A stretch of DNA of 64,000 nucleotides from positions 4,052-68,051 of the forward strand of contig CAZDEW010000004.1 in the NCBI GenBank assembly GCA_964504585.1, given 5' to 3'. The notes under the pieces are model-generated. The model saw only the letters and a program-made list of their open reading frames with translations. It did no database searches and was not told the origin of the DNA. This document shows, in pieces, positions 21,215 through 44,635 of the stretch (positions within the stretch are counted from its first letter, which is position 1; each line of letters opens with the position of its first letter). This DNA is from an uncultured Pseudomonadales bacterium (GTDB taxonomy: Bacteria; Pseudomonadota; Gammaproteobacteria; Pseudomonadales; UBA7434). The position numbers and the translations under genes were made by a program.

Positions 21215-21963
21215 TGTCTGACCTCGAACAACCGTTAGTCGCCCATCTGTTGGAGCTTCGAGATAGACTCCTAAAGAGCTTGATTGCTATCGCAGCAGTT
21301 TTCCTTTGTCTTGTACCGTTTGCCGGCCCGCTGTACACATTTTTTGCTGCACCAGTGCAATCACTTTTGCCCGAGGGCACCAGCATGATTGCGACCGATA
21401 TCGCTTCCCCATTCTTTGCACCCTTTAAACTAAGTCTGGTGCTGGCATTTTTTCTATCGGCACCGCTGTGGCTATACCAGGTCTGGTCTTTCATAGCGCC
21501 GGGACTCTACACACAGGAGAAGCGTCTAGCGACGCCTATTCTGATTAGCAGCGTCTTGCTCTTTTATTTAGGTATGGCGTTCTGTTACTTCGTCGTTTTC
21601 CCGATCGTGTTTGGGTTTTTTACCAACATCGCACCCGAGGGAATCGCCGTCACACCCGACATCAATAGCTATTTGAATTTTATTTTGAAGCTATTTTTCG
21701 CCTTCGGCCTGGCGTTTGAAATCCCTATAGCAACCGTTATCTGCATTCGAAGCGGAGTCACGACGGCAGAAAAGCTAGCGGCGAAACGCCCTTACGTCAT
21801 ACTCGGGTGTTTCGTATTCGGGATGTTGTTGACACCGCCCGACGTCATTTCCCAATCACTGCTTGCAATACCCACCTGGCTATTGTTTGAAGTTGGGCTG
21901 CTAATGTCGCGCTTTGCGGTAGCGCCGGCAGGTGAAGGCGACAATCAACGAGGCGAGGCTTAA
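21214..21963 (+). CDS. tatC: twin-arginine translocase subunit TatC
   Basis: 249 aa with six TM segments and an N-terminus PLVAHLLELRDRLLK. The GTG start overlaps the tatB stop (TAGTG). Confidence 0.95.
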   Translation: MSDLEQPLVAHLLELRDRLLKSLIAIAAVFLCLVPFAGPLYTFFAAPVQSLLPEGTSMIATDIASPFFAPFKLSLVLAFFLSAPLWLYQVWSFIAPGLYTQEKRLATPILISSVLLFYLGMAFCYFVVFPIVFGFFTNIAPEGIAVTPDINSYLNFILKLFFAFGLAFEIPIATVICIRSGVTTAEKLAAKRPYVILGCFVFGMLLTPPDVISQSLLAIPTWLLFEVGLLMSRFAVAPAGEGDNQRGEA

Positions 21964-23673
21964 CACTGAGAACGATCCTCCTCCGCCACCACCGCCGGAG
22001 GATCCTGAGCTGCTAGCGCCCGAAGATGAACCGCCATCAGAGGCTTGACTGTCACTAGGCGTGCCCGGATCGCCCAGCACGAGCTCACCAAAATCAAGAT
22101 ATTCCGTTACCAGCACATTGTTGGATGGCAGCATTTCGACGCCATCGCCTCCGATGGCGTTGACCGACTGAGTGTACTCAAAGCTACTGGCATTATTGAC
22201 GACAGTCGCTGTAATCGTTAGCGTCTCCGCGGACGAGGCATTGGGAATCTGGCAGGAAAAATTGTCGCTGAATACGGTACAGGATCCTGAGCTAACGCTC
22301 ACGGCGTCGAACTGTCCCGTCGAGGGATCGGTGATGATCCCATCAACGCCAAGCGTGACAATGCCCGCACTACCACCACCCCGCAAAACATTATATTCAG
22401 CACTAAACGATTGCTCGTAGGGCACCGTCACAGGATTAGCTGCCTCGGCGACCAAACTGCTGTCGATGGGAAAGTCCAGGCACTGGGAGCGCACCGAGGA
22501 TGCGAGCACATCGGTCATCGTTTGCCGTATTACTGATGAAGAACAAGCAGAGAACTCTGTGATTGACCCTGCGCTCCCGCCAATGCTTGGAGTCATCACA
22601 TGGGTGTTAGCAGAGCATCCGTTTGCGACTGGGTCATCATGCTCTGCGCCGAGGTTGTGGCCTATTTCGTGCGCCATCACTAAACTGACAAAAAATGCAT
22701 CGCCTGCATCCGTCACGCCGGTATTCAAGCCAAACGTATCGCAAAAAACATCGAGGTAGGCGATACCAACCACATTGCTGCTGCCACCCGGCACGATGAC
22801 AGGCGGGAAATTTCTCCCAGTAACAAAGTGAAAAATCGAGCGCGGGCTCTGTATGAAGTCAAGCTCGCCGCGGTTCCGCGCCAGTCGCAGAGAATCCAAA
22901 AGCCCAGCCGCCGTGTTCTCGCCAGCAAAGGGCGCGTCCTGAGCGGCATCCAGAAAAGTCATAGAGACACTACTTAAACGGTAATTGAAGCTTTGCTCAA
23001 AAAACAGCTCCAGTTCGTTTAACTCTCGTGTCGCTCGGTCTAAGACAGTCTCGCCCGCAGAGAATATAGCTTGATAACTTTGATCGTAGGCGAGCTCAAG
23101 TTCAGGCAACAGACAAACGCCGTCGACCGGTTCGGGACAATCAGCGGACACCATTGCGCTCGACACTGAAGCAGCGATTGGAGAAAAAGAGACATTACTA
23201 GCAGCGCTATCGAACACACTGCTTACATGGCCAGGTGCCTGGCAAAGTTGCTGATCTTCTGCCGGAGTCTCAATCAGTTCGGCCTGAAAAAGCAGTTGCT
23301 CACCAGCCACCGGTCGGTACTCATCAATTCTGTAGATAAGCCCACCAAATACCACAACACCCCGCCAGTGCCCATTCGCCTCAGAAATTCTTACGGCGCT
23401 GTCGGCAAATCCATCAATGCTCCCGTGAAAGTGCGTCGCATTTTCAGCGTGCGAAACGACTGACGAAGATCCGTTAACAATTTTTTTCGCCAGGCTGGCG
23501 TTGACTTTGATCGAGGCCTGATAAACCACGCCGTCAAGTTGAATCTCGACGGACTCCGTGCCCGACTCGGCTGAGGCAACTGCAGCGGTCCACAGCAGAA
23601 GTACCGCAGAGAACCACGCTAGCAAATCGTTGAATTTAGGTCTGGCCTTGAAGCGGGCCCTGGGGGAGTACAC
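21901..23673 (-). CDS. secreted zinc metalloprotease (metzincin/reprolysin-like) with GlyGly-CTERM-like sorting tail
   Basis: 590 aa with a signal peptide (LLAWFSAVLLLWTAAVASA) and the zinc site HEIGHNLGAEHD (22636-22671). The C-terminus has a Ser/Gly-rich linker followed by GGGGGGGSFSVLSLASLIVAFTCRRYRKARH. Confidence 0.8.
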   Translation of the reverse strand: MYSPRARFKARPKFNDLLAWFSAVLLLWTAAVASAESGTESVEIQLDGVVYQASIKVNASLAKKIVNGSSSVVSHAENATHFHGSIDGFADSAVRISEANGHWRGVVVFGGLIYRIDEYRPVAGEQLLFQAELIETPAEDQQLCQAPGHVSSVFDSAASNVSFSPIAASVSSAMVSADCPEPVDGVCLLPELELAYDQSYQAIFSAGETVLDRATRELNELELFFEQSFNYRLSSVSMTFLDAAQDAPFAGENTAAGLLDSLRLARNRGELDFIQSPRSIFHFVTGRNFPPVIVPGGSSNVVGIAYLDVFCDTFGLNTGVTDAGDAFFVSLVMAHEIGHNLGAEHDDPVANGCSANTHVMTPSIGGSAGSITEFSACSSSVIRQTMTDVLASSVRSQCLDFPIDSSLVAEAANPVTVPYEQSFSAEYNVLRGGGSAGIVTLGVDGIITDPSTGQFDAVSVSSGSCTVFSDNFSCQIPNASSAETLTITATVVNNASSFEYTQSVNAIGGDGVEMLPSNNVLVTEYLDFGELVLGDPGTPSDSQASDGGSSSGASSSGSSGGGGGGGSFSVLSLASLIVAFTCRRYRKARH

Positions 23674-27284: not shown

Positions 27285-28157
27285 CTAAGACACAGAATCC
27301 AGTCGCGGCGCTACGGCTTCATAAGGTGCCGCATATAGCAAGCCATCGCTAATGAAATAAATCCAGTTCGAATTGGGCGTTTGCCAGTCGCTGCCATAAC
27401 GCAAGGCTAGGTATTCAGACGATCTCTCGGGTACGTTCACTGTGCACCCCAGAAAACTGTGCGACTTTACCGAGTTGAAATATTTTGCAGGTACAACCCA
27501 GGTATAGGATGCCCAGTGGCGCCGAGCATCTGGATGACTCACAACATCGAAACGGTCAGCCTCTCGACGCGTTGGAATCGCACGAAACCTACGGCGCGCC
27601 CATGCTTTATAGTAGGCACGGTAGAGAAACCGAGCAACTTTGTTATTAAAAAATCGAATGCTCCCCTCTCCCGCGACAGATGCAAGCTTGGAAACGGAAA
27701 GATCGTTTAGATCCAACGCACCCTCTCGCTCAAGCAGCTTATCGGTATGCTTTCTGGCAGCCTCGACATACCAGGTCCCATGGGGCCAAAAGATTGATCG
27801 AGCGAACTTTACTATTTGGGGGGAGCACCAAAAATCACCGTGGCGATAGTAGCAGTGAGCATGAATATCTAAAGAGGGGCGCTTGTCGGCCCATTCCAAA
27901 TTCACGCCTTGCAGCTTGCCCTTATACAACTTCTTCTTAACCAGAATGTCTCGCTCAAGACATTTCTGCTCAAGCATGGCGACACGCTGCTCGTCACAGC
28001 GCAATATACCAAGATCGATATCGCTATCATGAGACAGCAGATCACCACCGCGAATTATACCCAGCAACGTCCCGCTATCGGCAAAACACTCAACATTGCA
28101 TTCGGCCATTATCTGGCTAACAACATTAAGCAACTCTCTGGAGTTCTCAATAGACAC
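27285..28157 (-). CDS. LicD-family phospho(no)transferase (nucleotidyltransferase-fold)
   Basis: 290 aa. The N-terminal pattern CFADSGTLLGIIRGGDLLSHDSDIDLGIL matches the LicD signature (GTLLG..R......D.D.D). It is the last gene of the phosphonate operon, 9 nt after the ADH stop. Confidence 0.7.
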   Translation of the reverse strand: MSIENSRELLNVVSQIMAECNVECFADSGTLLGIIRGGDLLSHDSDIDLGILRCDEQRVAMLEQKCLERDILVKKKLYKGKLQGVNLEWADKRPSLDIHAHCYYRHGDFWCSPQIVKFARSIFWPHGTWYVEAARKHTDKLLEREGALDLNDLSVSKLASVAGEGSIRFFNNKVARFLYRAYYKAWARRRFRAIPTRREADRFDVVSHPDARRHWASYTWVVPAKYFNSVKSHSFLGCTVNVPERSSEYLALRYGSDWQTPNSNWIYFISDGLLYAAPYEAVAPRLDSVS

Positions 28158-28166
28158 TAAACATCC

Positions 28167-29285
28167 TCATCCGCTGAATACATAGTCGATATCTGCTGGT
28201 GTCAGCCTGACGGGATTGTTCCCTAAACGCTGCTGATTAACTGAAGCAATCACCTCATCCAAATCGTAATCGATGCCCGAAAGATCTTGCGTTGTGCCCA
28301 GCTGGCTGATGAGGTCCGCAAGCCAATCAGAGGCTTTCGCATCACCCAAACCAAGTAGCTCGCGCAATTCCCGCATCAGCTCACGAAATCTCTCAGCCCC
28401 CATAGGGTGGGTAATTTGCTCATCAGGAGCTTGCTCATGCACATCAAAAATTCGAGGCAAGGTAAGACCTACAGCAGCGCCATGAGAAACATCATGAAAG
28501 TAAGTGAAATAATAAGAATAAGCATGCGCGGCTGTGGTCTTGCTGATATCAATAGCCCTTCCGGCAAGATTGGCCGCCTCGAGCAAGGACTGTAGGTCTT
28601 GCGGCAACATTGTGTCGATAGACTGTGGTAACAAGAAAGAAAGTTTCTCTATCGCGCTCCGAGCGAAGCCCCGGCTTTCATCAGTCGCCCCATTAGACCA
28701 GAAAGATTCAACAGCCTGGGCCAACGCATCAATCGCGCAAGAAGCGCGCTGTGGGAGTGAGCAGGTCTCGATAAAACGCCCATCCAAAAAAGCCATTGAA
28801 GGACGCAAGATCTGAGAGGCGAGAGAGAATTTTCGGGAGCCCTGGTAGACTACAGCAAAATGGGTAGATTCACTCCCTGAGCCAGCAGTGGTGGGAACAG
28901 CCAGCACCGGGCATAACACGGAATCTATTTGAATTTCTCCCCGCAAGCAGGGTTCAATCTGGCTGTCTTCAAGCGGTGCAAAGCCTGTCATTGCTTTGGC
29001 GAGATCCAGAATCCTTCCACCACCTATCGCAATCACTTGCTGTGGCTTGAAAGCACGAAGCTTAGGCAGCGCCGCACGCACTTCATCAAGTTGCGGCAGC
29101 GAAGAGCTCGACGACACGAGCTCCACTTCAAAGTGCGTGGATAAATCCTCTAGAAGCGTGGAAATTGCCTGACTCTGCGAGGAAGAGGCGCCGACAACGA
29201 TCGCAACGCGACGAATCGCCGAAGCGGAAAGATGCTCTGGAATCTCCGCCGCGCATCCATAGTGACTGAGAATTTGCTGAGCCAT
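28167..29285 (-). CDS. group III iron-dependent alcohol dehydrogenase, probable phosphonoacetaldehyde reductase
   Basis: 372 aa with GGGRILDLAK, PTTAGSGSE and the His cluster HAYSYYFTYFHDVSHG. It lies immediately downstream of PepM and Ppd. The fold is confident; the substrate is inferred from context. Confidence 0.75.
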   Translation of the reverse strand: MAQQILSHYGCAAEIPEHLSASAIRRVAIVVGASSSQSQAISTLLEDLSTHFEVELVSSSSSLPQLDEVRAALPKLRAFKPQQVIAIGGGRILDLAKAMTGFAPLEDSQIEPCLRGEIQIDSVLCPVLAVPTTAGSGSESTHFAVVYQGSRKFSLASQILRPSMAFLDGRFIETCSLPQRASCAIDALAQAVESFWSNGATDESRGFARSAIEKLSFLLPQSIDTMLPQDLQSLLEAANLAGRAIDISKTTAAHAYSYYFTYFHDVSHGAAVGLTLPRIFDVHEQAPDEQITHPMGAERFRELMRELRELLGLGDAKASDWLADLISQLGTTQDLSGIDYDLDEVIASVNQQRLGNNPVRLTPADIDYVFSG

Positions 29286-29298
29286 AAAGTGTGCCGAA

Positions 29299-30414
29299 TC
29301 AACTACCCATGAATCGTGGTTTCAGTGAAGTCATCGCTTCTTTCGGGCGCCCTATTCCTTCCCGGTTTCCTGGGTTCACCAGAATCTCGACAAAAGACGT
29401 CCCTGAACTTTCGCGGGCCTCGGTTACCGCCTGTTCAATCTCCACAGCACTTGAAACGCGACGGGAGAAACTATAGCCGCACATTTTAGCAAACTCCGTA
29501 AAATCAAAATCAGGACCGACGGTCTCCTGACCTCCAACAGAGTCGTGCACACCATTATTGAATAAAATATGCACAAACCCTGCGGGCGCCTGCTTTCCGA
29601 TTGCCACCAGCGAACCCAGGTGCATCAACGCAGCCCCGTCGCCATCCAAACACACCACAGGCGCCCCGTCGAGCGAGGCCGCTACACCAAGCGCGATGGT
29701 GGAAGCGTGGCCCATACCACCCACGGTCATAAAAGCACGAACATCGAGCAACTGATTGGTATTTTCATAGAGTTCTCGCGAAAGCATGCCGGTTGTTGAA
29801 ACGATCCTCACTTTCGGATCAATGGCTCCAAGCGCCACCCGCAAAGCCTCTTCCCGCGACATCAATGTCTCAGAGAGGCAGCGCTTAGGTTCGATCTGGC
29901 TCTTTAGCGAACCCTTAGGTACCAGAATCGCCACGGGGGTGGACTGAGATTTTGCAACATCGACAAGCTCATCAACCATATCATCGATTTCCCCATCGTC
30001 AGAGCAAACTACTCGATATGGGATGTCAAGACTGTCCAGAATAGACTCGGTAATTCGCCCCTGATGAACGTGCTGTGGCTCATCTTTCGTACCCGGCATT
30101 GCACGCCACCCAATGATCAAGACCATCGGAATTGAGTACACTTCCGGGCTAGCAAGCGATACAAGCGGATTGATCGCGTTACCCAGTCCGGAGTTTTGCA
30201 TGTATACCGCTGAAATCTCTCCAGTTGCAAGATTGTGTCCGATTGCATGAGCCACGGCACCCCCTTCGTTTGCAGCGACAACATGCCTATCCTCGCCGAA
30301 AACTTCGGCAGCCGTGACGCAAAAGCCCGACAACACGGAATCTGGCACCCCGACCAGCCTGGTAACGCCTCTCGAAAGCAGGCAGCTCGCGAGCTTCTCA
30401 CTCTCAATCGTCAT
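29299..30414 (-). CDS. ppd: phosphonopyruvate decarboxylase (ThDP-dependent)
   Basis: 371 aa with LVGVPDSVL, ANEGGAVAHAIG, YMQNSGLGNAINPL, GGMGHASTIALG and LDGDGAALMHLG. It starts 3 nt after the PepM stop. Confidence 0.85.
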   Translation of the reverse strand: MTIESEKLASCLLSRGVTRLVGVPDSVLSGFCVTAAEVFGEDRHVVAANEGGAVAHAIGHNLATGEISAVYMQNSGLGNAINPLVSLASPEVYSIPMVLIIGWRAMPGTKDEPQHVHQGRITESILDSLDIPYRVVCSDDGEIDDMVDELVDVAKSQSTPVAILVPKGSLKSQIEPKRCLSETLMSREEALRVALGAIDPKVRIVSTTGMLSRELYENTNQLLDVRAFMTVGGMGHASTIALGVAASLDGAPVVCLDGDGAALMHLGSLVAIGKQAPAGFVHILFNNGVHDSVGGQETVGPDFDFTEFAKMCGYSFSRRVSSAVEIEQAVTEARESSGTSFVEILVNPGNREGIGRPKEAMTSLKPRFMGS

Positions 30415-30417
30415 CTT

Positions 30418-31719
30418 TTATCTCGGCGGCAACAGTTTAAGGATCTGCGAGATTGACATGATCTCGCTATTGGCCTCGTGTGAACGCGTGTGCTCAAGTA
30501 TGCTCTCGGCTACGCTGACCATGGCGGGATAGGCCGCGCGCAACAGGTGATTCGCATAAATGACAATTGATACTCCCGCCTCACACAATTCGGCCTCAGT
30601 TACAGTGTTATAGCTAGAGGGTACTGCTATTAGCGGCTGCGTGTAGCCGCGCTTGCGGAATTCAGCGGCAAACTCCAGAACTTCCGCTGGATCCGATTTC
30701 GCACTGTGTATCATGACCCCATCAGCCCCGGCTTCAATGTAAGCCTCTGCGCGCTGCATGGCATCGTCTTGGCCTTTGTCGAGGATAAGGCTTTCGATCC
30801 GAGCAAAGAACATGAAATCGTGCCCTACCTGCGCACGCTTTGCAGCGCGAATTTTGTCGCAGAAGTCCTCTATAGAGGCCTGCTCCTGCTTTACTGTTGT
30901 GCCAAACAAAGAGTTTCGCTTGGGACCAACTTTATCCTCAAGTACAACAGCCGATACACCATGGCTCTCCAATTCGTAAACCAGAAACGGTATGTTGTCT
31001 ATGCTTCCGCCCGAATCGCCGTCATAAATAATTGGAATAGCAGTAACTTCACACATATCCCGAATCACTGACAATCTTGCACCAGTGTCTACAACTTCGA
31101 TATCGGGACGCCCCCGTGAAGTCGCGTCGGTGAGTGAGCTGCACCATAGCGCATCGAAGGCGCGCACTTCTTTGCCAACGGTATGTTTTGCAGTTCCAGC
31201 AACCAGAGCGCTTAGCCCGCTGTGTGCCTCGAGAACCCTTACAGTATCTTTCGCATCGAGCAGCCGGCGAAGAAGTCCGCGGCGAAAGTCCGCGGTAATA
31301 CCACGCTCGGAAATACTCTCAATCAGCTGCGTTGAGGAAACACCCGCTGTGTAGGGCACATCTACGACCTGACCGCCCCACTTACTGATAACGTCAATAA
31401 CGTTACGACGTGTATCAGCTTGCACCCCTTCCTTCCAGTCATCGCCGTGCACGACGAAATCAGGCTTCAGACTCTCGAGGTTTGCTGTGTAATCGAGCGT
31501 CTCTTGTGGGATGACCTGCGCTACTCCCTTGATGTTCTCGACGACCGTCTTCCGCTCCTCATAGGGCATAAGCGGCAACCGCTTGTACTGGGCAATGGCA
31601 CGGTCGGTAAGCAAGCCAACCGTCAGCTCACCCAGATCACGAGCATGTTTAATGATATTAATGTGCCCGTGATGCAGTACATCCGCACAAACACCCGCGT
31701 ATACCTTTGGTTTTGTCAT
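30418..31719 (-). CDS. bifunctional cytidylyltransferase / phosphoenolpyruvate mutase (Fom1-like fusion)
   Basis: The N-terminal ~135 aa is TagD/ECT-like ([41 protein letters not shown]). The C-terminal domain is a PEP mutase with the diagnostic [10 protein letters not shown] block (30910-30939). I prefer the ATG at 31719, preceded by GGAGAAACT, over the track start at 31770. Confidence 0.85.
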
Positions 31720-32211
31720 AGTTTCTCCGAAGATTTTCCCTGAGCCCGATGGGCACTGAAGAGCAAACACCTGTAAAAACGATTATCTATCTGTGGGATC
31801 GAGCCAATACTGAGACTCGATTGGAAAGCGAGGGTTAACTCGTGGCATATATGCGTTAAGACGGCAGTCGCCTGATGCAACCACTACCCAGCTGAATATC
31901 TTTTAATCAGTAAGATTTTATGCCGTGGAAGTAAGCGTTTATCGAGCCAGCCCCACAGGTCAACATGGTGTGACGAAGCCGCGAATGCTACTCGATATAA
32001 AAAACCATAACAATTGTAGATCGGCTATAAAAATCCACGGTTTAGGCAGCTATATTGCACTGTGAAGAATTGCTTATCGGAGCAGCATTTGCGTGCATTT
32101 TGTAAAGCGGCAAAGAGACCGTAAGCAGGACCAAAACACTTTGGATATTTAGCGGATAACGTCGCTGGCAAGTCAGCTAATTGTGGAAGTAAACTGGAGA
32201 GAGGTCGGCCA

Positions 32212-34815
32212 TCAGAAAAAGATAGCTTCTTTTAGAAAATCTTCTAACTCGCCATAACCGAGCAGCGCATCAAGCACTCGGTGTCCCACCTCGCCCTTAC
32301 TCGAAGAAATGGGGCGTATTTCCCCATCAGTAACCTTGGCAACCAACTGCGCGAACTTTGCGTCACGCTTGTCGTCTCTGGCGTGACTCAATACTATTTC
32401 CGCACGACCACCACGCACTTTTTCGATAAGTAAAAGAGCAGCTTTTAGCAAAGCTTTTGACTTCTGTTTTTTAAAGCGTGGGAAACGACCGCCAATAGAC
32501 AAAACTCGTCGGACCTTAAAACGCAGTCCGGACACGATTGCCATATAAGCGCCAGCGCTACTTCCAATAGTTCTCAGCTCTGCATGCTCTTCTAAAATTT
32601 TTTGTTTACCAAGCCATCGAATAACCTGTCGTTCACTGGATCCTAACGAAGGAACACCGTCGGAATAGTTCTCGCCAAGTGGCTCCGCTATGATTAAGAA
32701 ATTGAACCTGGACGCGTCAGCGCACTGAAGCAGGGCGAAATTCGGGATAATCAATCGTCGTCGCCCACGCATCGCAAAACAAATCACCAGAACTTTTTTG
32801 GAAGAGTCGCCACCACCATCAAACAAGGTCACCGTTGGCGCAATCTTTCTGGGCTGATAACGCTGGAAGCTCTCCTCGCCAACGCTCATCAACACTGAGG
32901 AAACACTGGTGAACCATAAATCCAGCGCATTTTGAAACTTCTCGTTTTGCACATCGACAAGATCTTTACGAGAGTGCTCATGCGCAAGAAAAGCTAGCTG
33001 CTCAGGTGCCAACCGATGCTCAAAAGTTTGCAAAGCTTTATTGAGCTGGCCTATTGAGCTGCATAGCCTGAATACCCTTCTGAAAGTTTTTACCAGCTGA
33101 GTATAGTGATCATCTAGACGTAACCGCTCTTTAAATCCTTCAGGGAGAATTTCACCGCCAACCCTGCCGGTTTCTGCACCCGCTGAAATAGTCGCCACCA
33201 ACTGACTTAACAGCCTATAATCAGCAAACTCGCCGGGATCTATCACCACATCAAACTGCATTTCAACAAGAATAAGCAGCTCCATCTGCGTCATAGAATC
33301 CATACCAAGTGTTCGCAGTTTTACATCTTCTTCACCCGCCTCAAATGCATCTAGACTGTCGCCTAGGAAGTCCATGACTGACGGCAAACCTCTGATAGCC
33401 TCACACAGTCTCGTGCGGACATCACCGAACCGCCCGCTAATAGCCAAAACCTCTTGCCGGTTAACCTTACCTGTCTCCCCTCTCGGCACCTTGTTAACCA
33501 GAATGAACTGCTTGGGGGATCGAGCACCAGCACGTGCGCTAACGAACCTTTGGATTCGCGAGAGTTTTGGCGGACTCGCATATTGATCAAACGCTAATAT
33601 TGCAATCGGAACGTCACCGTGAATACGCGATTTTCTGGGTACGACGGCCGCATCAGCCACGCCAGGATACTCCATGATGAGTGACTCAAGCTCCTGTGGA
33701 TAAATGTTCATACTGTTGAACACAAACATGTCATCCGAGCGGCCAAGAATAAATAGACTACCGGTCTGGTCGATTCTTGCGATATCCCCTGTACAATACC
33801 AACCATCTTTCACACTCTTTTGATAAACCTCCTCAGCACCCAAATAGCCTTCGAACATGCCTTCACCACGCACGAATAAAACCCCGGGCTGGTCAGGCTC
33901 GACCACAACGCCAGCAGCATCTCGGCACTCAAGCTGAAGACCATTCAAAGCGCGACCAACGGACTCGGACTCAACAAACTCGGAAGTGTGCGCAAATGCG
34001 ATTGCTCCCGTCTCGGTAGTTCCGTATCCGAAGCGCAGATTCGGCGTTAGGGAATCTGTTAAAAGTTTTCTCGTCTCGGGTGATACATGCGAACCACCGA
34101 TTTTCAAACCTATACTTTGTAATCGATGAGCATCAGCATGACGAACCAGAGATCGCGCCTGGTACTCAGATACATGAAGCGTCTCTACATTCAAGCTAAT
34201 GCACTGATCCAGCAACTCATTACTGTCAAGAAAAACATTAGTAGCTCCACGGGCCATCACATAAAACCTGTGCCGCTTTGAAAAATTATGCTCAACGGAT
34301 GCGATACAAGCGAATCTTTCGTGCTCGTTATCGACATGCCTATGTGCCTGAGCGATCAGCCCAGCGCTACTGTGAACAACAATCTTCGGCTTTCCCGAGG
34401 TGCCGGACGTAGAAAACAGTAGTTGTGCGTTGCCGAGATCGCCGACATGCGTATTATCCGGAACAGTCCCAGAGAAACCCGAGGCCAACTGTTCCACTAA
34501 AAAAAAACGAGTGCCAGCCGACTCGAACACTGAAGTATCAAAGGCCATCTCAAAAGTAGGAATCGTAAAAGTTGTCGCCTCCAATCGCATACCAGCTAAA
34601 CAAATAATTAAGTGTTCGATGTCGTTGGCGCAGCGAATACCCATGACTGCCGCGGAGGTAACACCCAGAGACAATAATTCATTGGCCTCTGCCTCGACCA
34701 TTGCAGCAAGCTCCGAGTAAGAAATCGATCTCTCAACTGAAACCAGAGCATCCCGGTCGGGGGTAGACAGAGCCTGTTGATACAATAATGAAACGATATT
34801 TTTAGGGCGTTGCAT
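32212..34815 (-). CDS. tridomain adenylation - carrier (T/PCP) - alpha/beta-hydrolase-like enzyme
   Basis: 867 aa. Adenylation motifs are LLFSTSGTSGKPKIVVHS, GYGTTETG, WYCTGDIARIDQTGSLFILGRSDDM and PRGETGKVNRQE. The carrier motif LGMDSM has its Ser codon at 33295-33297. The C-terminal ~300 aa carries a nucleophile elbow GSSAG (Ser codon 32557-32559), then candidate Asp (HARDD) and His (EVGHRV). Confidence 0.8.
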   Translation of the reverse strand: MQRPKNIVSLLYQQALSTPDRDALVSVERSISYSELAAMVEAEANELLSLGVTSAAVMGIRCANDIEHLIICLAGMRLEATTFTIPTFEMAFDTSVFESAGTRFFLVEQLASGFSGTVPDNTHVGDLGNAQLLFSTSGTSGKPKIVVHSSAGLIAQAHRHVDNEHERFACIASVEHNFSKRHRFYVMARGATNVFLDSNELLDQCISLNVETLHVSEYQARSLVRHADAHRLQSIGLKIGGSHVSPETRKLLTDSLTPNLRFGYGTTETGAIAFAHTSEFVESESVGRALNGLQLECRDAAGVVVEPDQPGVLFVRGEGMFEGYLGAEEVYQKSVKDGWYCTGDIARIDQTGSLFILGRSDDMFVFNSMNIYPQELESLIMEYPGVADAAVVPRKSRIHGDVPIAILAFDQYASPPKLSRIQRFVSARAGARSPKQFILVNKVPRGETGKVNRQEVLAISGRFGDVRTRLCEAIRGLPSVMDFLGDSLDAFEAGEEDVKLRTLGMDSMTQMELLILVEMQFDVVIDPGEFADYRLLSQLVATISAGAETGRVGGEILPEGFKERLRLDDHYTQLVKTFRRVFRLCSSIGQLNKALQTFEHRLAPEQLAFLAHEHSRKDLVDVQNEKFQNALDLWFTSVSSVLMSVGEESFQRYQPRKIAPTVTLFDGGGDSSKKVLVICFAMRGRRRLIIPNFALLQCADASRFNFLIIAEPLGENYSDGVPSLGSSERQVIRWLGKQKILEEHAELRTIGSSAGAYMAIVSGLRFKVRRVLSIGGRFPRFKKQKSKALLKAALLLIEKVRGGRAEIVLSHARDDKRDAKFAQLVAKVTDGEIRPISSSKGEVGHRVLDALLGYGELEDFLKEAIFF

Positions 34816-34954: not shown

Positions 34955-36160
34955 TCACCGCGGAATCTTTTTTGAGTATCTTAGATACGTAGAAAACAAT
35001 CTCGCTATACGCTGCTTAAAACTGGTACGAAGATAAAGCCACCACCAAGGCAGATGTCTAACTGATTGGTAACGTTCTTCAATTAAGTTCGCCTGCAAAC
35101 TCAAAGATTCGCCCCGACTATCAAACACAGCATAATCTAGCAGCTTGCGACGATCCTGCTGCTTGTCATCGGTCGCCAAAGCTTGTCGTACAAAAGGTAG
35201 CAAGTCCTCGGAATGATCGATTACAGTCCCCGCCTGCCATACATACGTATTATCAGTAATCTGATTACCGGCCTTGTACCGTCCCGGCGCAGGGTTGGCG
35301 AAAAGAATCGGACGGTCAAAATGCAACCATTCGTAGCATACCGATGAAATGTCGGAGATCATGGCATCGCTTGCTGCCATATAGGGTGTGATGTCATCAT
35401 CAATCACAACCTTCACGTTTGCTTCATAACCCAGCTCTTCTATTAAATCTTTGACCCGATCATAGATGTCGATTTTGTCCGAAACCAACTTGCTATGAAA
35501 CTTCATAATTACATTGTAGTGACTGCCAAGCTGTCTCACGATTTCAAGAGACCAAAGTTGGATCGAGCTTTCACCATAGAGTGAACGCTCACCTAGCTTC
35601 ATACTAGTCACCGAGCTATCCCAAGTTGGCGCGTATAGAATGACCTTCCTATCCTCATCGAACAAACTTACTGGTGTAAGGCTTCCCTTATAAAATTCAT
35701 CAAATTTGGGATAACCTACTAGCTTCCAGCTATTGATATACGGCAACGTACCTGCAAGCTTTGCTTTATCTACAGCTTTCTGCCCGGGGAACAGGACAAG
35801 GTCGTAACAGGTGAGTCGAGCTGACTCTATATATCGCTTGTCTGACAAGCCCCCATGAAAAACCTGAACTGCTACACCACAGTAAAGAAGATGAAAACTT
35901 GGATAAACAATCAACCTCAATCTCAACTTAAACGCCAGCTTCCTTGCCTCTGCTCTATTTTCTACTAGCCGTATGTCCAGGCAATAATCCGAATATTTTT
36001 CATTAGCGCGGGCAAAAATACTGGTGTTATCGGTAATGATAACCCCACCAAGGCGTGGATATAGCCTGATAACTGGAGGCAGGTGTTGGATGTTCGAAGA
36101 CAAGTAGTAGCCAATTTTCTTATCCATACTTGCACTGGCCGACACTTCAGCATTCATCAT
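34955..36160 (-). CDS. TagB/TagF-family CDP-alcohol phosphotransferase (glycerophosphotransferase-like)
   Basis: 401 aa. ILYAPTWDSS and MAASDAMISDISSVCYEWLHFDRPILF match the Glyphos_transf pattern (YAPT[WF]R and D.LI.D.SS..F.....P). Confidence 0.7.
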   Translation of the reverse strand: MMNAEVSASASMDKKIGYYLSSNIQHLPPVIRLYPRLGGVIITDNTSIFARANEKYSDYCLDIRLVENRAEARKLAFKLRLRLIVYPSFHLLYCGVAVQVFHGGLSDKRYIESARLTCYDLVLFPGQKAVDKAKLAGTLPYINSWKLVGYPKFDEFYKGSLTPVSLFDEDRKVILYAPTWDSSVTSMKLGERSLYGESSIQLWSLEIVRQLGSHYNVIMKFHSKLVSDKIDIYDRVKDLIEELGYEANVKVVIDDDITPYMAASDAMISDISSVCYEWLHFDRPILFANPAPGRYKAGNQITDNTYVWQAGTVIDHSEDLLPFVRQALATDDKQQDRRKLLDYAVFDSRGESLSLQANLIEERYQSVRHLPWWWLYLRTSFKQRIARLFSTYLRYSKKIPR

Positions 36161-36248: not shown

Positions 36249-37115
36249 CTAGCCACTGATCAGATTCAACTTCTCTCTTATTATTGTCGAACTAACGCTT
36301 GGCGTGTAGTCAAAGTAGATTACTTCACAACTAGTTTTTGGGTACTTGCCTTTCCAGTCGGAGCCTACGGATATCGCATCGATACCGAACTTATCTACCG
36401 CTGCTTGTTTATTTTTGTCGTGTTGCGGCACGACTTTATCCACATATGATATCTGCTCTACGATTGCTGCGCGCTCCTCATAGGGAATGACAGGTAGACG
36501 CCCTTTATCTTTTAAAATCAGATCGTCAACTGAAACGCCCACTATCAGTTCGTGACAAAGCTCTTTAGTGCGTCGCAAAATATTTAAATGGCCGTGATGG
36601 AATATGTCGAAACAACCCGTAGTGTACATCCTGTTGAATCGCTTATTCGGCTGCTGCTGCACGGCTACTGCGGCAAACTCCTTCTTCAGGACAGCCTTCA
36701 TCGCAGCGTGTTCTTCATCGCTCATCTCCAGCGACGTGGATAAATCACAGGGGCCCGGCCAACTGCGATCGAAAAATTCACGGCCTTGCAGCTTTTGAGC
36801 AGCACTATGACGCGGAAAGATATGGAAATGAACGTGCGGATCAACCATCATAAGCATGAGATAATTCGTCTTCTCATAACCCAATCTGCCCTTAAAAACC
36901 GCCTCGATAATCTTTACCAAATTTCCCTGTTCAATAACTGCGTCGGGGGAAATCTGGTCATACGCCGTGACATTTTCTTTGCAAACGAGAACAATAGAAC
37001 CGAGCGTCACCTGTTTGGGTCGATACAAAACCTCCCAAAAACGAGATGAAAAAATCGTCGATTCAGGAAAACCGAATTTGTCTAATGTGTCCTGGACATC
37101 CATAAAAGTGCTCAA
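36249..37115 (-). CDS. HIT-domain / TagD-like cytidylyltransferase fusion protein
   Basis: 288 aa. The N-terminal HIT histidine triad is PHVHFHIFPR (36825-36839). The C-terminal half is colinear with glycerol-3-phosphate cytidylyltransferase: TTGCFDIFHHGHLNILRR (HxGH at 36588-36599), VGSDWKGKY, TPSVSSTIIRE. Confidence 0.75.
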   Translation of the reverse strand: MSTFMDVQDTLDKFGFPESTIFSSRFWEVLYRPKQVTLGSIVLVCKENVTAYDQISPDAVIEQGNLVKIIEAVFKGRLGYEKTNYLMLMMVDPHVHFHIFPRHSAAQKLQGREFFDRSWPGPCDLSTSLEMSDEEHAAMKAVLKKEFAAVAVQQQPNKRFNRMYTTGCFDIFHHGHLNILRRTKELCHELIVGVSVDDLILKDKGRLPVIPYEERAAIVEQISYVDKVVPQHDKNKQAAVDKFGIDAISVGSDWKGKYPKTSCEVIYFDYTPSVSSTIIREKLNLISG

Positions 37116-37326
37116 GCAAACCCCACGCTGCGAAGCGGAATTTTACAATATAATGGCGAAATCCAACAAGCAAAGCCCTGCCCCACACGCCCGCTACAAG
37201 CAGCTTTGGTAACTTTTGCGGTGTTCAACGGAAGTTGCAGGATCAACTTCCCTATTGAGAGCCATGCCCGTAAAGTCCGTGCGCAGAGCATCACTTCAGA
37301 ACCGTATTCCTGATGCAAAGGCAATC

Positions 37327-38448
37327 ATGCAAACTCCGATAACCGATCAACCCCTTACCATCTATCTGGACACACCCAATCTCTACTATCTCCCTCAGTA
37401 CGAGCCGTTGATCAATGAAGCAATCCGAAGGGGCGCCAACTATAAAGTTGTCCTGTATCAAGACAAAAATCAGCTCAACACTCAGCGATCATGTCTCGCG
37501 AAGCATGCTGACAAGCTGATTTTAGTGGATGATGCAGAACAGGCTTCAAAGCTTTACGCGAAAGACAGACCTAACTGGGTGTTTTTTGGCAATAGCTTTG
37601 ATTATCTGGAGCTACTCCACGCGGACACGCATACCGCACAGCTAGGGCACGGCATCGGCCCAAAGCCAAGCTACTATCATAAATCTCGCACGGCGATGAC
37701 CGTCCGATTTATCGAAGGCGCACTAAGGCTCTCAACCATCCGCAAGCTCTATCCTGAACAAAACTTTGTTCAGGTTGGCTTTTGTAAGCTGGATCCCTTA
37801 TTCAACAGCAAGGCGGAAATGCAGCCACCTGAAAATTACAAGTTGCCGAAGGGCAGAACCACTTTACTTTATGCGCCAACTTTCAAACCGAGTTCGCTTG
37901 AGTGCTTTCCCGATAACTGGCCAGAGCACTTCGAAGAAACCAATATCTTGGTCAAGCCGCATCACTTTACTTATGAGAGAAAGCGCTATGAAAAGCAGCG
38001 CAGGAAGCTGGAAAAATGGTCTCGCTTTCCGAACGTCCACATTGCCAGCAAAGACGCCCTATCCTTGTTGCCGTACATGAATATTGCGGATCTGATGATT
38101 AGCGATGCCTCATCCGCAATTTTCGAATTTGCAGCATTAGACAAGCCTATCGTGCTGTGTAATTTCTTTAAGCTTCCATGGCACTATCGAGGTCCATTTA
38201 AATATCGTTATAACCGACGCTTCGTACAGGACGCTGTAGCCTATGAATCGCTTGCGCCGTTCGCCAGGAATTTTCAGGAGATGCACCGCCTAGTCGGCGA
38301 AGAACTAAAAGCACCCGAACGATATGCGCCGGCGAGACAGGCGTACACGCGAGATCATGTTGGAGACACCGACGGCAGAGCATCTGCCCGGATCCTCGAT
38401 TATATTGAGAACTACTCGGTAAACTCAGCTTCAGATCGAGCGAGTTGA
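37327..38448 (+). CDS. second TagB/TagF-family CDP-alcohol phosphotransferase
   Basis: LLYAPTFKPSS and MNIADLMISDASSAIFEFAALDKPIVLC. The start is uncertain: the track gives 37216, with ATGs at 37264 and 37327, and I use 37327 (MQTPITDQ). The 3' end overlaps the convergent GT9 gene by 18 nt. Confidence 0.68.
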   Translation: MQTPITDQPLTIYLDTPNLYYLPQYEPLINEAIRRGANYKVVLYQDKNQLNTQRSCLAKHADKLILVDDAEQASKLYAKDRPNWVFFGNSFDYLELLHADTHTAQLGHGIGPKPSYYHKSRTAMTVRFIEGALRLSTIRKLYPEQNFVQVGFCKLDPLFNSKAEMQPPENYKLPKGRTTLLYAPTFKPSSLECFPDNWPEHFEETNILVKPHHFTYERKRYEKQRRKLEKWSRFPNVHIASKDALSLLPYMNIADLMISDASSAIFEFAALDKPIVLCNFFKLPWHYRGPFKYRYNRRFVQDAVAYESLAPFARNFQEMHRLVGEELKAPERYAPARQAYTRDHVGDTDGRASARILDYIENYSVNSASDRAS

Positions 38449-43435: not shown

Positions 43436-44356
43436 ATGGCAAAAGATAAAAAATCCCGCAAAACTGCGCTCTATCATCCTCGATACTGGATGAACTGGAT
43501 TGGCGTACTCTTGCTGCGCATCGTTGCCACCCTGCCATTGGGCGCGAAACACGCGGCTGGAAAGGCGGTGGGGATCCTAGCCTACCACTTCGTAAAAAGG
43601 CGTAGGCACATAACCAATGTCAATATTGAACTCTGCTTTCCGGAGCTTTCTCCTGATGAAAGGGCAAAGTTGGTAAAAGACATTTTCATCCAGAACGGCA
43701 TTGGATTATTCGAAATAGCATGGTCATGGTGGGTCAAGCCGGGGCAGCTGGAAGGGCTGTACACGCTTGAAAATCTCGACTTACTTCGTGAAGCCCAGCG
43801 GGATGGTAGTGGCGTGCTGCTGGTTGGAGCACACTTTGTCCATCTAGATCTTTGCGGCGCTATGATCTGTCAGGATTACCCAATCGGTGCCATCTATCGA
43901 ATGAACAACAATCCGGTCATGGAGGCAGTGATTACTCGCGGTCGCAAACGGATTTTCACCGATGTGCTGGAGCGATCCGACATGCGCGCCATAGCCCGCA
44001 GACTAAAAGCCGGCGCAGTTATCTGCTATGCCCCGGATCAGGACTTTAATCACCGGCATAGCGTATTCGCCCCTTTCTTCGGCCAGAGCGCCTCAACGCT
44101 GACTGCAACCAGTAGGCTGGCAAGGCTCGGCAATGCCAAAGTCGTCGGTCTATTTCACTACCGCGACCCAAAAACTCGCCACTATCGTATAGTTTTTAAA
44201 GCAATCGACCCATCATTCCCGACGGGTGACGACGTGCAAGATGCGACGCTGGTGAATCAAATGCTGGAGAGCTGCATCAGGGAAGCGCCGGCCCAGTATA
44301 TGTGGGTACATCGGCGCTTTAAAACCAGGCCTCCCGGAGAAAACCCAGTCTACTGA
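43436..44356 (+). CDS. lpxL: lipid A late (secondary) acyltransferase, LpxL/HtrB family
   Basis: 306 aa with an N-terminal TM segment, the acyltransferase H(x)4D motif GAHFVHLDL, and YMWVHRRFKTRP near the C-terminus. Confidence 0.82.
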   Translation: MAKDKKSRKTALYHPRYWMNWIGVLLLRIVATLPLGAKHAAGKAVGILAYHFVKRRRHITNVNIELCFPELSPDERAKLVKDIFIQNGIGLFEIAWSWWVKPGQLEGLYTLENLDLLREAQRDGSGVLLVGAHFVHLDLCGAMICQDYPIGAIYRMNNNPVMEAVITRGRKRIFTDVLERSDMRAIARRLKAGAVICYAPDQDFNHRHSVFAPFFGQSASTLTATSRLARLGNAKVVGLFHYRDPKTRHYRIVFKAIDPSFPTGDDVQDATLVNQMLESCIREAPAQYMWVHRRFKTRPPGENPVY

Positions 44357-44635
44357 AGCACAGACAAGGCATATTAACGTCACTCGCACGCACAACGCGC
44401 GGACAAGATGGCGCACAGGGTTTACACTTAATCCCAGATACTACGCCAGACGACCGCGTGCGCATAGCCATCGTTACAGCGAGATTTAACGCGGCAGATG
44501 TCACATCCTTGCAGCTGTAACTAGGGCTAATACCAACAGCGGGGAGGTGTCAGACGCGGGGTCAGGATCGAAAGCAGGACCGGCATCTAGCGTTGTGCTT
44601 ACCCACCACTAATTTTGGATTTAGAGAGAAACACT

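Follow-up and report, generated by a model that had tools for sequence, protein, structure and literature searches.

A 64,000-nucleotide stretch of DNA from an uncultured Pseudomonadales bacterium (contig CAZDEW010000004.1; the window) carries on its minus strand an open reading frame (ORF; 32212..34815, ATG start) whose 867-amino-acid (aa) product joins an ANL adenylation (A) domain, a carrier or thiolation (T) domain and a lid-bearing alpha/beta-hydrolase domain in one polypeptide. All three domains are intact, they follow the A-T-thioesterase (A-T-TE) order of nonribosomal peptide synthetases (NRPSs), and all catalytic residues are conserved. We put forward, tentatively and as somewhat short of probable, that this protein is a self-contained NRPS-like enzyme that acylates an intermediate of the cell envelope. 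Three elements are new: an unnamed lid-bearing hydrolase family, a conserved three-gene cassette in which relatives are encoded, and the relocation of one member, the window gene, to a locus with lipopolysaccharide (LPS), glycerophosphate and phosphonate genes. We found no description of the cassette or of the tridomain architecture in the literature.

Three intact domains with conserved catalytic residues

The ORF is a real gene and no chance reading frame, since it is long, its three domains model confidently and it has hundreds of full-length homologues. A preliminary description, made from the sequence alone, had proposed an adenylation-carrier-hydrolase protein that lacks a condensation domain, and both parts are borne out by Pfam scanning, which detected no condensation domain in the 867-aa ORF, and by AlphaFold2 (AF2) modeling with Foldseek comparison. 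In the full-length AF2 model, the mean predicted local distance difference test score (pLDDT) is 88.2, with all three domains confident.

The A domain (aa 1-460; 33436..34815, minus strand, as are all parts of the ORF) was delimited by Pfam, motifs and alignment. It matches AMP-binding with an E value of 5.9e-37 (127.8 bits; cut-off, 29.9) and, at aa 375-450, AMP-binding_C (31.8 bits; cut-off, 24.5). Motif scanning located A3 (SGTSGKPK, aa 137-144), A5 (GYGTTETG, aa 263-270), A7 (TGD, aa 342-344), A8 (GRSDD, aa 358-362) and A10 (GKVNRQE, aa 449-455), the last with the catalytic Lys450 (nt 33466-33468); these motifs, together with both Pfam models above cut-off, place the domain in the ANL superfamily. 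The carrier domain, delimited by the same means (aa ~470-548; 33172..33408), is recognized by PP-binding (PF00550; aa 496-543, 30.4 bits; cut-off, 20.8), by the DS motif within LGMDSM (aa 503-508) and by helices at residues 485-549 of the model. Its predicted phosphopantetheine attachment site is Ser507 (nt 33295-33297). The C-terminal part, of roughly 310 aa, begins with a four-helix lid, an N-terminal subdomain seen in the AF2 model (aa ~559-645; 32881..33141), and continues into the alpha/beta-hydrolase core (aa ~654-867; 32215..32856), as assigned by motifs, AF2, Foldseek and alignment. The nucleophile elbow GSSAG (aa 751-755) places Ser753 at nt 32557-32559, and EVGHRV (aa 842-847) places the base His845 at nt 32281-32283. 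Lys450, Ser507, Ser753 and His845 all lie in the motifs named in the preliminary description, the two serines at the nucleotides given there.

Searched against about 5.8 billion proteins, the window protein gave 345 matches. The best 120 of these are nearly all full-length (about 870-985 aa) but no more than 34-41% identical; their hosts are marine Gammaproteobacteria (Zhongshania, Litorivivens, Porticoccus, Spongiibacteraceae), Methylophilaceae and others. The window protein forms a singleton cluster, seen on contigs of one metagenome study. Conservation was counted in an alignment of 119 relatives. The A3, A5, A7, A8 and A10 residues are invariant; Ser507 is kept in 119/119 and the preceding Asp506 in 116/119. 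In the hydrolase domain, G751, S753, G755, D818 and H845 are invariant. The acid of the triad had earlier been sought in the 'HARDD' motif. The proposed serine and histidine hold, but of the 'HARDD' aspartates D814 is kept as Asp in 80/119 and D815 varies, while Asp818 (within 'KRD'; nt 32362-32364) never changes, which makes it the catalytic acid.

The window protein is nonetheless divergent within its family. It departs from the family at 20 positions where conservation elsewhere is at least 94%; A262F beside GYGTTETG, L239I and T275A are among them. A neighbor-joining tree of A domains sets it apart from the main clade, on a long branch at the base.

The C-terminal domain is an unnamed alpha/beta-hydrolase branch

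Given the family alignment as input, AF2 modeled aa 548-867 with a pLDDT of 93.8 and a predicted template modeling score of 0.91, as a four-helix N-terminal lid followed by an alpha/beta sheet core. The hydrolase fold and the ordered triad residues on which the preliminary description had staked its assignment are both present: a sheet core in the model, a GxSxG elbow, and an acid and then a histidine in the expected order place the domain in the alpha/beta-hydrolase superfamily. Foldseek returned 368 PDB matches at E<=1e-3, all of them alpha/beta hydrolases among those listed, at template modeling scores (TM-scores) of only about 0.4-0.45. The top matches are FrsA (3our, 4i4c; DUF1100-type), the DHPON hydrolase (2jbw), acylaminoacyl peptidases and esterases; the O-acyltransferases CsaC (6yuo) and Ag85C (1dqy/1dqz) follow lower in the list, at ranks 35-49 and ~10% identity.

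At the sequence level, residues ~550-867 gave no Pfam or NCBIfam match at E<=1, Thioesterase (PF00975) included, and no PDB sequence match to the domain fell below E 0.1, whether a single sequence or a profile was used. One stand-alone relative reaches just 20.7 bits for Abhydrolase_1. That the domain belongs to no named family, as suspected from the start, is thereby upheld; within the superfamily it forms a new branch that has no name. Conserved residues of the lid include R580, Q590/N592 and E599-R601-x-x-P604, and the lid is common to the stand-alone homologues.

With a profile of the domain alone, 1,756 clusters (representatives at 50% identity) score at E<=1e-3, 280 of them at E<=1e-30. 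The best-scoring 150 representatives are mostly stand-alone proteins of about 300-340 aa; forms of about 400-450 aa are T-hydrolase fusions and those of about 900 aa are A-T-hydrolase fusions. Other fusions join the domain to Sulfotransfer_4 (three cases), to a glycosyltransferase family 2 (GT2) domain or to Gluconate_2-dh3. Four stand-alone homologues that we looked up represent two independent contexts, and all keep the Ser, Asp and His. One context consists of GT2, Caps_synth, GT17 and sulfotransferase genes; in the other, the neighbors encode a P450, a carrier protein of 92 aa, an Acyl_transf_3-SGNH O-acyltransferase and a GT2. Stand-alone homologues among glycosyltransferase and sulfotransferase genes, with genes for small carrier proteins close by, are those of L055 (8001-9029) and L057 (8001-8936) and the proteins P0166, P0168, P0194 and P0207. 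These few loci offer the best independent support for a carrier-linked, glycan-tailoring role of the hydrolase domain.

The A domain resembles acid-CoA ligases

The solved sequences closest to the A domain are MenE (2.4e-28), 4-coumarate:CoA ligases (4CL), FadD13, malonyl-CoA synthetase (MatB) and a salicylate-AMP ligase. In fold comparison, the A domains on which the full-length model superposes best have target-normalized TM-scores of 0.79-0.80 for MenE, 0.77 for oxalyl-CoA synthetase, 0.74-0.76 for 4CL and 0.72-0.74 for CahJ; DltA scored 0.63, at rank 50. All NCBIfam scores are far under the cut-offs: the NRPS amino-acid adenylation model TIGR01733 scored 104.5 bits against a cut-off of 317.4, and the top model, for long-chain-fatty-acid-CoA ligase, 183.5 bits against 476.

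In amino-acid activators, an Asp in motif A4 binds the alpha-amino group (Asp235 in GrsA, Asp197 in DltA). Aligned with MenE by HMMER, the window protein has His176 at the A4 'plfH' position; we take the NRPS 'FDxS' to equate with the CoA-ligase 'FH' there, following established motif alignments. The alpha-amino-binding Asp is not present at this position in the alignment of 119 relatives, where the residue is His in 106/119, Gln in 12/119 and Tyr in 1/119. Because His replaces the amino-acid-binding Asp and the nearest matches are aryl-, acyl- and dicarboxylate-CoA ligases, aminoacylation in the manner of the Dlt or Alm systems is unlikely. Mapping of a Stachelhaus-type pocket is approximate, and we used only the A4 position as evidence.

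A second feature is specific to the family. An unusual invariant motif follows the A4 His, R159-H160 ... N177-F178-x-K/R180-R181-H182-R183-x-Y185, which sets these proteins apart from the MenE/4CL/MatB group. The A domain is otherwise compact and MenE-sized (~460 aa): it aligns with residues 147-476 of MenE without a long insertion, a comparison that covers fatty-acyl-AMP ligases (FAALs) through MenE only. These sequence features lead us to predict that the domain activates a carboxylic acid that lacks an alpha-amino group. An aryl, short acyl or dicarboxylic (anionic) acid is most likely in view of the nearest folds and sequences and of the invariant basic motif, and this motif itself hints at a polar or anionic acid. 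Of the 'amino or carboxylic acid' of the preliminary description, the second half is therefore kept and the first is not.

Relatives are encoded in an oxygenase-methyltransferase cassette

In Zhongshania, Litorivivens and a Methylophilaceae metagenome-assembled genome, the homologue comes third in a tight operon, after a gene for a haem-oxygenase-like diiron enzyme (PF14518; about 260 aa) with weak likeness to CADD and BesC and then one for an S-adenosylmethionine-dependent methyltransferase (about 248 aa). This methyltransferase is 67-94% identical across the main group and thus far more conserved than the tridomain protein. Both partners accompany the gene in 31 of 39 related loci from genomes (one per species) and in 28 of ~35 from metagenomes; PepM, TagF or LicD genes occur in none of either set. 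Most of the other loci end at a contig edge; where the flank is long enough, the two partners stand beside nearly all of the about 70 relatives examined. The cassette loci (L003-L043 and L063-L096; for example L006 6450-10676, L025 6479-10649 and L030 3380-7615) belong to marine Gammaproteobacteria, Methylophilaceae and Planctomycetota, with Zhongshania, Litorivivens and Porticoccus as cultured genera, and their flanks are otherwise unrelated to one another.

A variant of the cassette encodes the A domain (about 486 aa) and a T-hydrolase protein (about 405 aa) in overlapping ORFs, with the methyltransferase and oxygenase genes convergent downstream (L037 7926-12113; also L034, L036, L038, L040, L041, L087, L089 and L092). 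In L037, an ORF that appears by eye, from its translation, to encode a UbiA-like prenyltransferase lies directly upstream. A Planctomycetota locus (L044 8001-10615) has such a split pair with neither oxygenase nor methyltransferase within 8 kb; there the pair adjoins a sigma-factor fusion protein and a large Ser/Thr kinase, and the locus is a second instance of these domains encoded apart from the cassette partners. As to regulation, no riboswitch was found in eight cassette loci (Rfam, which reported only two tRNA genes), and Fur-box, Pho-box and k-mer enrichment searches upstream of 26 cassettes gave nothing, although this test was crude and weak and does not establish absence.

The window protein is a clear full-length homologue of the cassette members (35-41% identity), though the partner genes are missing beside it; tblastn found no homologue of either oxygenase or methyltransferase in the 64-kb window (best E about 3). 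Its gene is best explained as a divergent member of the cassette family that has lost its partners and now lies within a co-oriented run of envelope genes.

The window gene lies among envelope genes

The genes among which the tridomain gene lies, co-oriented, form a run for LPS core, TagF and phosphonate functions. A phosphonate module (27285..31770, also minus strand) lies downstream of it, across a 441-bp gap, and encodes a cytidylyltransferase-PEP mutase fusion (374 bits, above cut-off), a phosphonopyruvate decarboxylase (417 bits, above cut-off), a PsrA-like Fe-alcohol dehydrogenase and a LicD-family transferase. No aminotransferase is encoded among the genes adjoining this module. The combination of a Fom1-like fusion, the decarboxylase, the Fe-alcohol dehydrogenase and LicD without an aminotransferase therefore predicts a hydroxyethylphosphonate decoration, not the usual 2-aminoethylphosphonate. 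By analogy with the Fom1 and Pnt pathways (PMC6697681), the module would form CMP-hydroxyethylphosphonate and transfer the phosphonate; the phosphonate literature that we found does not mention an ANL or carrier partner.

On the upstream side lie a TagF-like glycerophosphotransferase gene (TagF1; 34955-36160, minus strand), a cytidylyltransferase gene (36249-37115, minus strand) whose product is extended at its N terminus by about 160 unannotated aa, and another TagF-like gene on the plus strand (37216-38448). A protein of comparable size (281 aa) and with the same Pfam domain as the window cytidylyltransferase is encoded beside TagF pairs in other marine gammaproteobacterial loci (L060 5714-6559; L062 4663-5508). 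Beyond the TagF genes follow genes for a heptosyltransferase, HldE, a Kdo kinase, WaaA and LpxL; MsbA, GmhA and GmhB are encoded on the other side. The LPS/phosphonate setting that the preliminary description had emphasized is thus real in the window; it is not conserved among the about 73 related loci.

GC content is 0.44-0.49 at ~31.6-38.2 kb, which takes in the tridomain gene, both TagF genes and the cytidylyltransferase gene, against 0.51-0.54 in the flanks. This low GC suggests that the 31.6-38.2 kb stretch was acquired horizontally into the LPS core locus. Functional links of the TagF region and the phosphonate module to the tridomain gene are a hypothesis only.

Likeness to known systems

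EntF and SrfA-C present the same succession of an A domain, a T domain and a Ser-His-Asp alpha/beta hydrolase, and the full-length model aligns with them over about 960 columns. The window hydrolase differs from the TE domains of EntF, SrfA-C and FrsA in matching no Thioesterase model and in carrying the four-helix lid, and the protein differs from NRPS termination modules in that its A domain is of the CoA-ligase, not the amino-acid, type and that it has no condensation domain. Off-loading through an acyl-serine can proceed by hydrolysis or by intermolecular transesterification. The FrsA TE transesterifies a side chain onto FR900359, an intermolecular transesterification by a TE domain (PMC7794379), and on this precedent such a reaction is possible for domains of this kind.

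The comparison that the preliminary description had favored was with the Dlt and Alm systems of carrier-dependent envelope modification, here taken as DltA/DltC/DltB/DltD and AlmE/AlmF/AlmG of Vibrio cholerae (PMC4278540). As in those systems, an ANL enzyme would load a dedicated carrier, the locus contains TagF (teichoic-acid-type) genes, and the acyl group would, as proposed here, end as an ester on an envelope polymer. Dlt and Alm are however made of separate proteins that handle an amino acid bound by a pocket Asp, while here all functions are fused and cytoplasmic and the pocket is not of the amino-acid type; the Dlt transferases are MBOAT and SGNH proteins and AlmG is of the LpxL family, and no such partner was found among the ORFs of at least 150 aa at 17.5-47.5 kb. 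Since substrate class, partners and transferase type all differ, and the best A-domain matches are acid-CoA ligases with the A4 His in place of Asp, the window protein is not part of the Dlt and Alm systems.

Alpha/beta-hydrolase O-acyltransferases are also known in the form of Neisseria CsaC and mycobacterial Ag85C, which share the fold and the Ser-His-Asp triad. They transfer an acyl group to a sugar hydroxyl, a step only proposed for the window protein; their donors are acetyl-CoA or trehalose mycolate, without a carrier domain, and they do not share the lid. DltD, too, uses a Ser-His-Asp acyl-enzyme, which makes the chemistry suggested for the window protein less alien than was first thought. 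To call the transferase 'mechanistically different', as the earlier account did, was an overstatement, glycan O-acyltransferases with this fold being among the fold matches. MenE, 4CL, oxalyl-CoA synthetase, MatB and CahJ, finally, have the compact A domain with His at A4, yet they pass the acyl group to CoA or to a separate carrier, whereas the window A domain is fused to its own.

Proposed reaction and competing explanations

We propose that the ANL domain would first adenylate a carboxylic acid, as its intact motifs suggest, and that the acyl group would then be thioesterified to the phosphopantetheine expected on Ser507. The lid-bearing hydrolase domain, whose fold and triad are seen, would take the acyl group onto Ser753 with the aid of His845 and Asp818. 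We infer these three steps, from acid adenylation through Ser507-phosphopantetheine to Ser753, with high confidence. In the last step, an acceptor hydroxyl and not water would resolve the acyl-enzyme; here the acceptor would be an envelope intermediate on the cytoplasmic face before MsbA export, and candidates are a glycerol-phosphate or hydroxyethylphosphonate substituent, a nascent LPS core sugar or a TagF-made polymer. We have low confidence in this final step: transfer from carrier to serine to acceptor, as envisaged in the preliminary description, is chemically reasonable, while the acceptors named there (hydroxyethylphosphonate, glycerol phosphate or a core sugar) are conjecture, and an envelope hydroxyl is a plausible but hypothetical acceptor. 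In favor of a glycan acceptor are the stand-alone hydrolase copies in glycan loci, the sulfotransferase and GT2 fusions and the low-GC island shared with the TagF genes.

Several observations weigh against an envelope role. Both partners stand beside the gene in about 59 of the ~73 related loci and PepM, TagF and LicD in none. The window association being unique among related loci, guilt by association is weak. No fourth neighbor, and with it no gene related to an acceptor, recurs in the cassette flanks. Seen from the TagF side, the nearest homologues of TagF1 (54-58% identity) are accompanied by another TagF and the same cytidylyltransferase, in L061 within a full LPS core locus; the tridomain gene and the phosphonate genes are absent there. 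Within the window, the intergenic gaps of 139 bp and 441 bp around the ORF permit separate transcription; consensus scans gave no minus-strand promoter-like site here and no terminator-like site in the downstream gap, and scanning of the flanking gaps for promoters and terminators performed no better than on shuffled sequence. A phosphopantetheinyl transferase was not found in the 64-kb window. Nothing in the sequence separates transferase from hydrolase chemistry.

A rival explanation, which we regard as a serious possibility, is an enzyme of a small-molecule pathway whose location is incidental and whose hydrolase is a plain thioesterase that releases a free product. As in the relatives, the acid would be made or modified with an oxygenase and methyltransferase, here encoded elsewhere in the genome or dispensable, and the LPS surroundings would mean that horizontal transfer had brought the gene into a variable locus. 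The conservation of the cassette in about 59 loci with otherwise unrelated flanks speaks for it, as do the retention of family-specific A-domain residues, which suggests a similar substrate, the TagF modules elsewhere that do without a tridomain gene, the low GC, which suggests acquisition, and the Planctomycetota A and T-hydrolase pair, which has no partners and non-envelope surroundings. It sits less well with the absence of oxygenase and methyltransferase homologues within 64 kb, or with the 20 substitutions at conserved positions, some of them (A262F, L239I, T275A) beside pocket-lining motifs and consistent with a changed role. The association of stand-alone and fused members of the hydrolase family with glycan-tailoring enzymes, and the co-orientation of the gene in an otherwise purely envelope gene run, likewise speak against it.

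The remaining explanations concern what is loaded, or whether anything is. Secondary acylation by a FAAL-type enzyme, with a fatty acid going to lipid A, core or a lysolipid, would agree with the long-chain-fatty-acid-CoA ligase model being the top NCBIfam match, with FadD13 and other fatty acyl-CoA synthetases among the matches and with lipid A genes close by. It is highly improbable, given that the 183.5 bits are far under the cut-off of 476, that the compact domain of about 460 aa, judged by its alignment with MenE, seems to leave no room for the FAAL insertion and that the invariant K/R-R-H-R run after the A4 His is basic and polar, unlike a hydrophobic fatty-acid tunnel. Highly improbable, too, is a fused aminoacylation system that would lower surface charge by placing D-Ala, Gly or another amino acid on glycerol phosphate, hydroxyethylphosphonate or lipid A. 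The A-T logic and teichoic-acid-like TagF neighbors do resemble a Dlt setting and DltA is among the fold matches; His176 (Gln in 12 relatives) in place of the alpha-amino-binding Asp, the low score for amino-acid adenylation, best matches that are acid-CoA ligases, the lack of DltB (MBOAT) and DltD partners at 17.5-47.5 kb and an LpxL-family gene that is an ordinary LpxL all contradict it. A broken cassette of which this gene is the non-functional remnant would account for the missing partners and the long branch in the A-domain tree, but with an intact frame of 867 codons, every catalytic and family-invariant residue retained and three confident AF2 domains, we give this next to no credence.

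A bolder form of the envelope-acylation proposal, which we consider unlikely as a whole, is that a Gram-negative bacterium here has its own cytoplasmic equivalent of teichoic-acid D-alanylation in one polypeptide, which would load a non-amino (aryl or dicarboxylic) acid on its built-in carrier and, through the lid-bearing hydrolase, esterify it to a glycerol-phosphate or hydroxyethylphosphonate substituent of the LPS core before export; by extension, the hydrolase family would comprise carrier-dependent glycan O-acyltransferases, and the envelope would be the target of the cassette. If envelope acylation is correct, it would represent an undescribed route by which Gram-negative LPS is decorated with an organic acid ester, with a carrier-bound donor and an alpha/beta-hydrolase as transferase, and could affect surface charge, interactions with phages and antimicrobial peptides, and marine phosphonate chemistry. 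Regardless of this, the lid-bearing hydrolase family (about 1,750 representative clusters) and the three-gene cassette (about 60 loci) are two uncharacterized, testable entities, and the window gene is the only member seen whose neighbors hint at an acceptor.

Other features of the window

The low-GC, non-coding 441-bp gap at 31771-32211 yielded no convincing ORF, terminator or Rfam match, and its small ORFs look spurious. No Rfam family was detected in the window, nor any tRNA gene by ARAGORN. A Pfam scan of ORFs of at least 150 aa between 17.5 and 47.5 kb found no MBOAT (DltB) or DltD domain. Two genes were considered as Dlt- or Alm-type partners and set aside. The sole LpxL-family gene, at 43436, lies 8.6 kb from the tridomain ORF and adjoins waaA; taken as a candidate AlmG analogue, it scores as an ordinary LpxL/LpxP (319 bits versus 298). 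A class IV aminotransferase gene at 44615, a candidate supplier of D-amino acids, scores as IlvE. Between tatC and the genes gmhB, gmhA and msbA, positions 21901-23673 encode a reprolysin-like (M12B) zinc metalloprotease of 590 aa, whose family is unusual in core regions of bacterial chromosomes.

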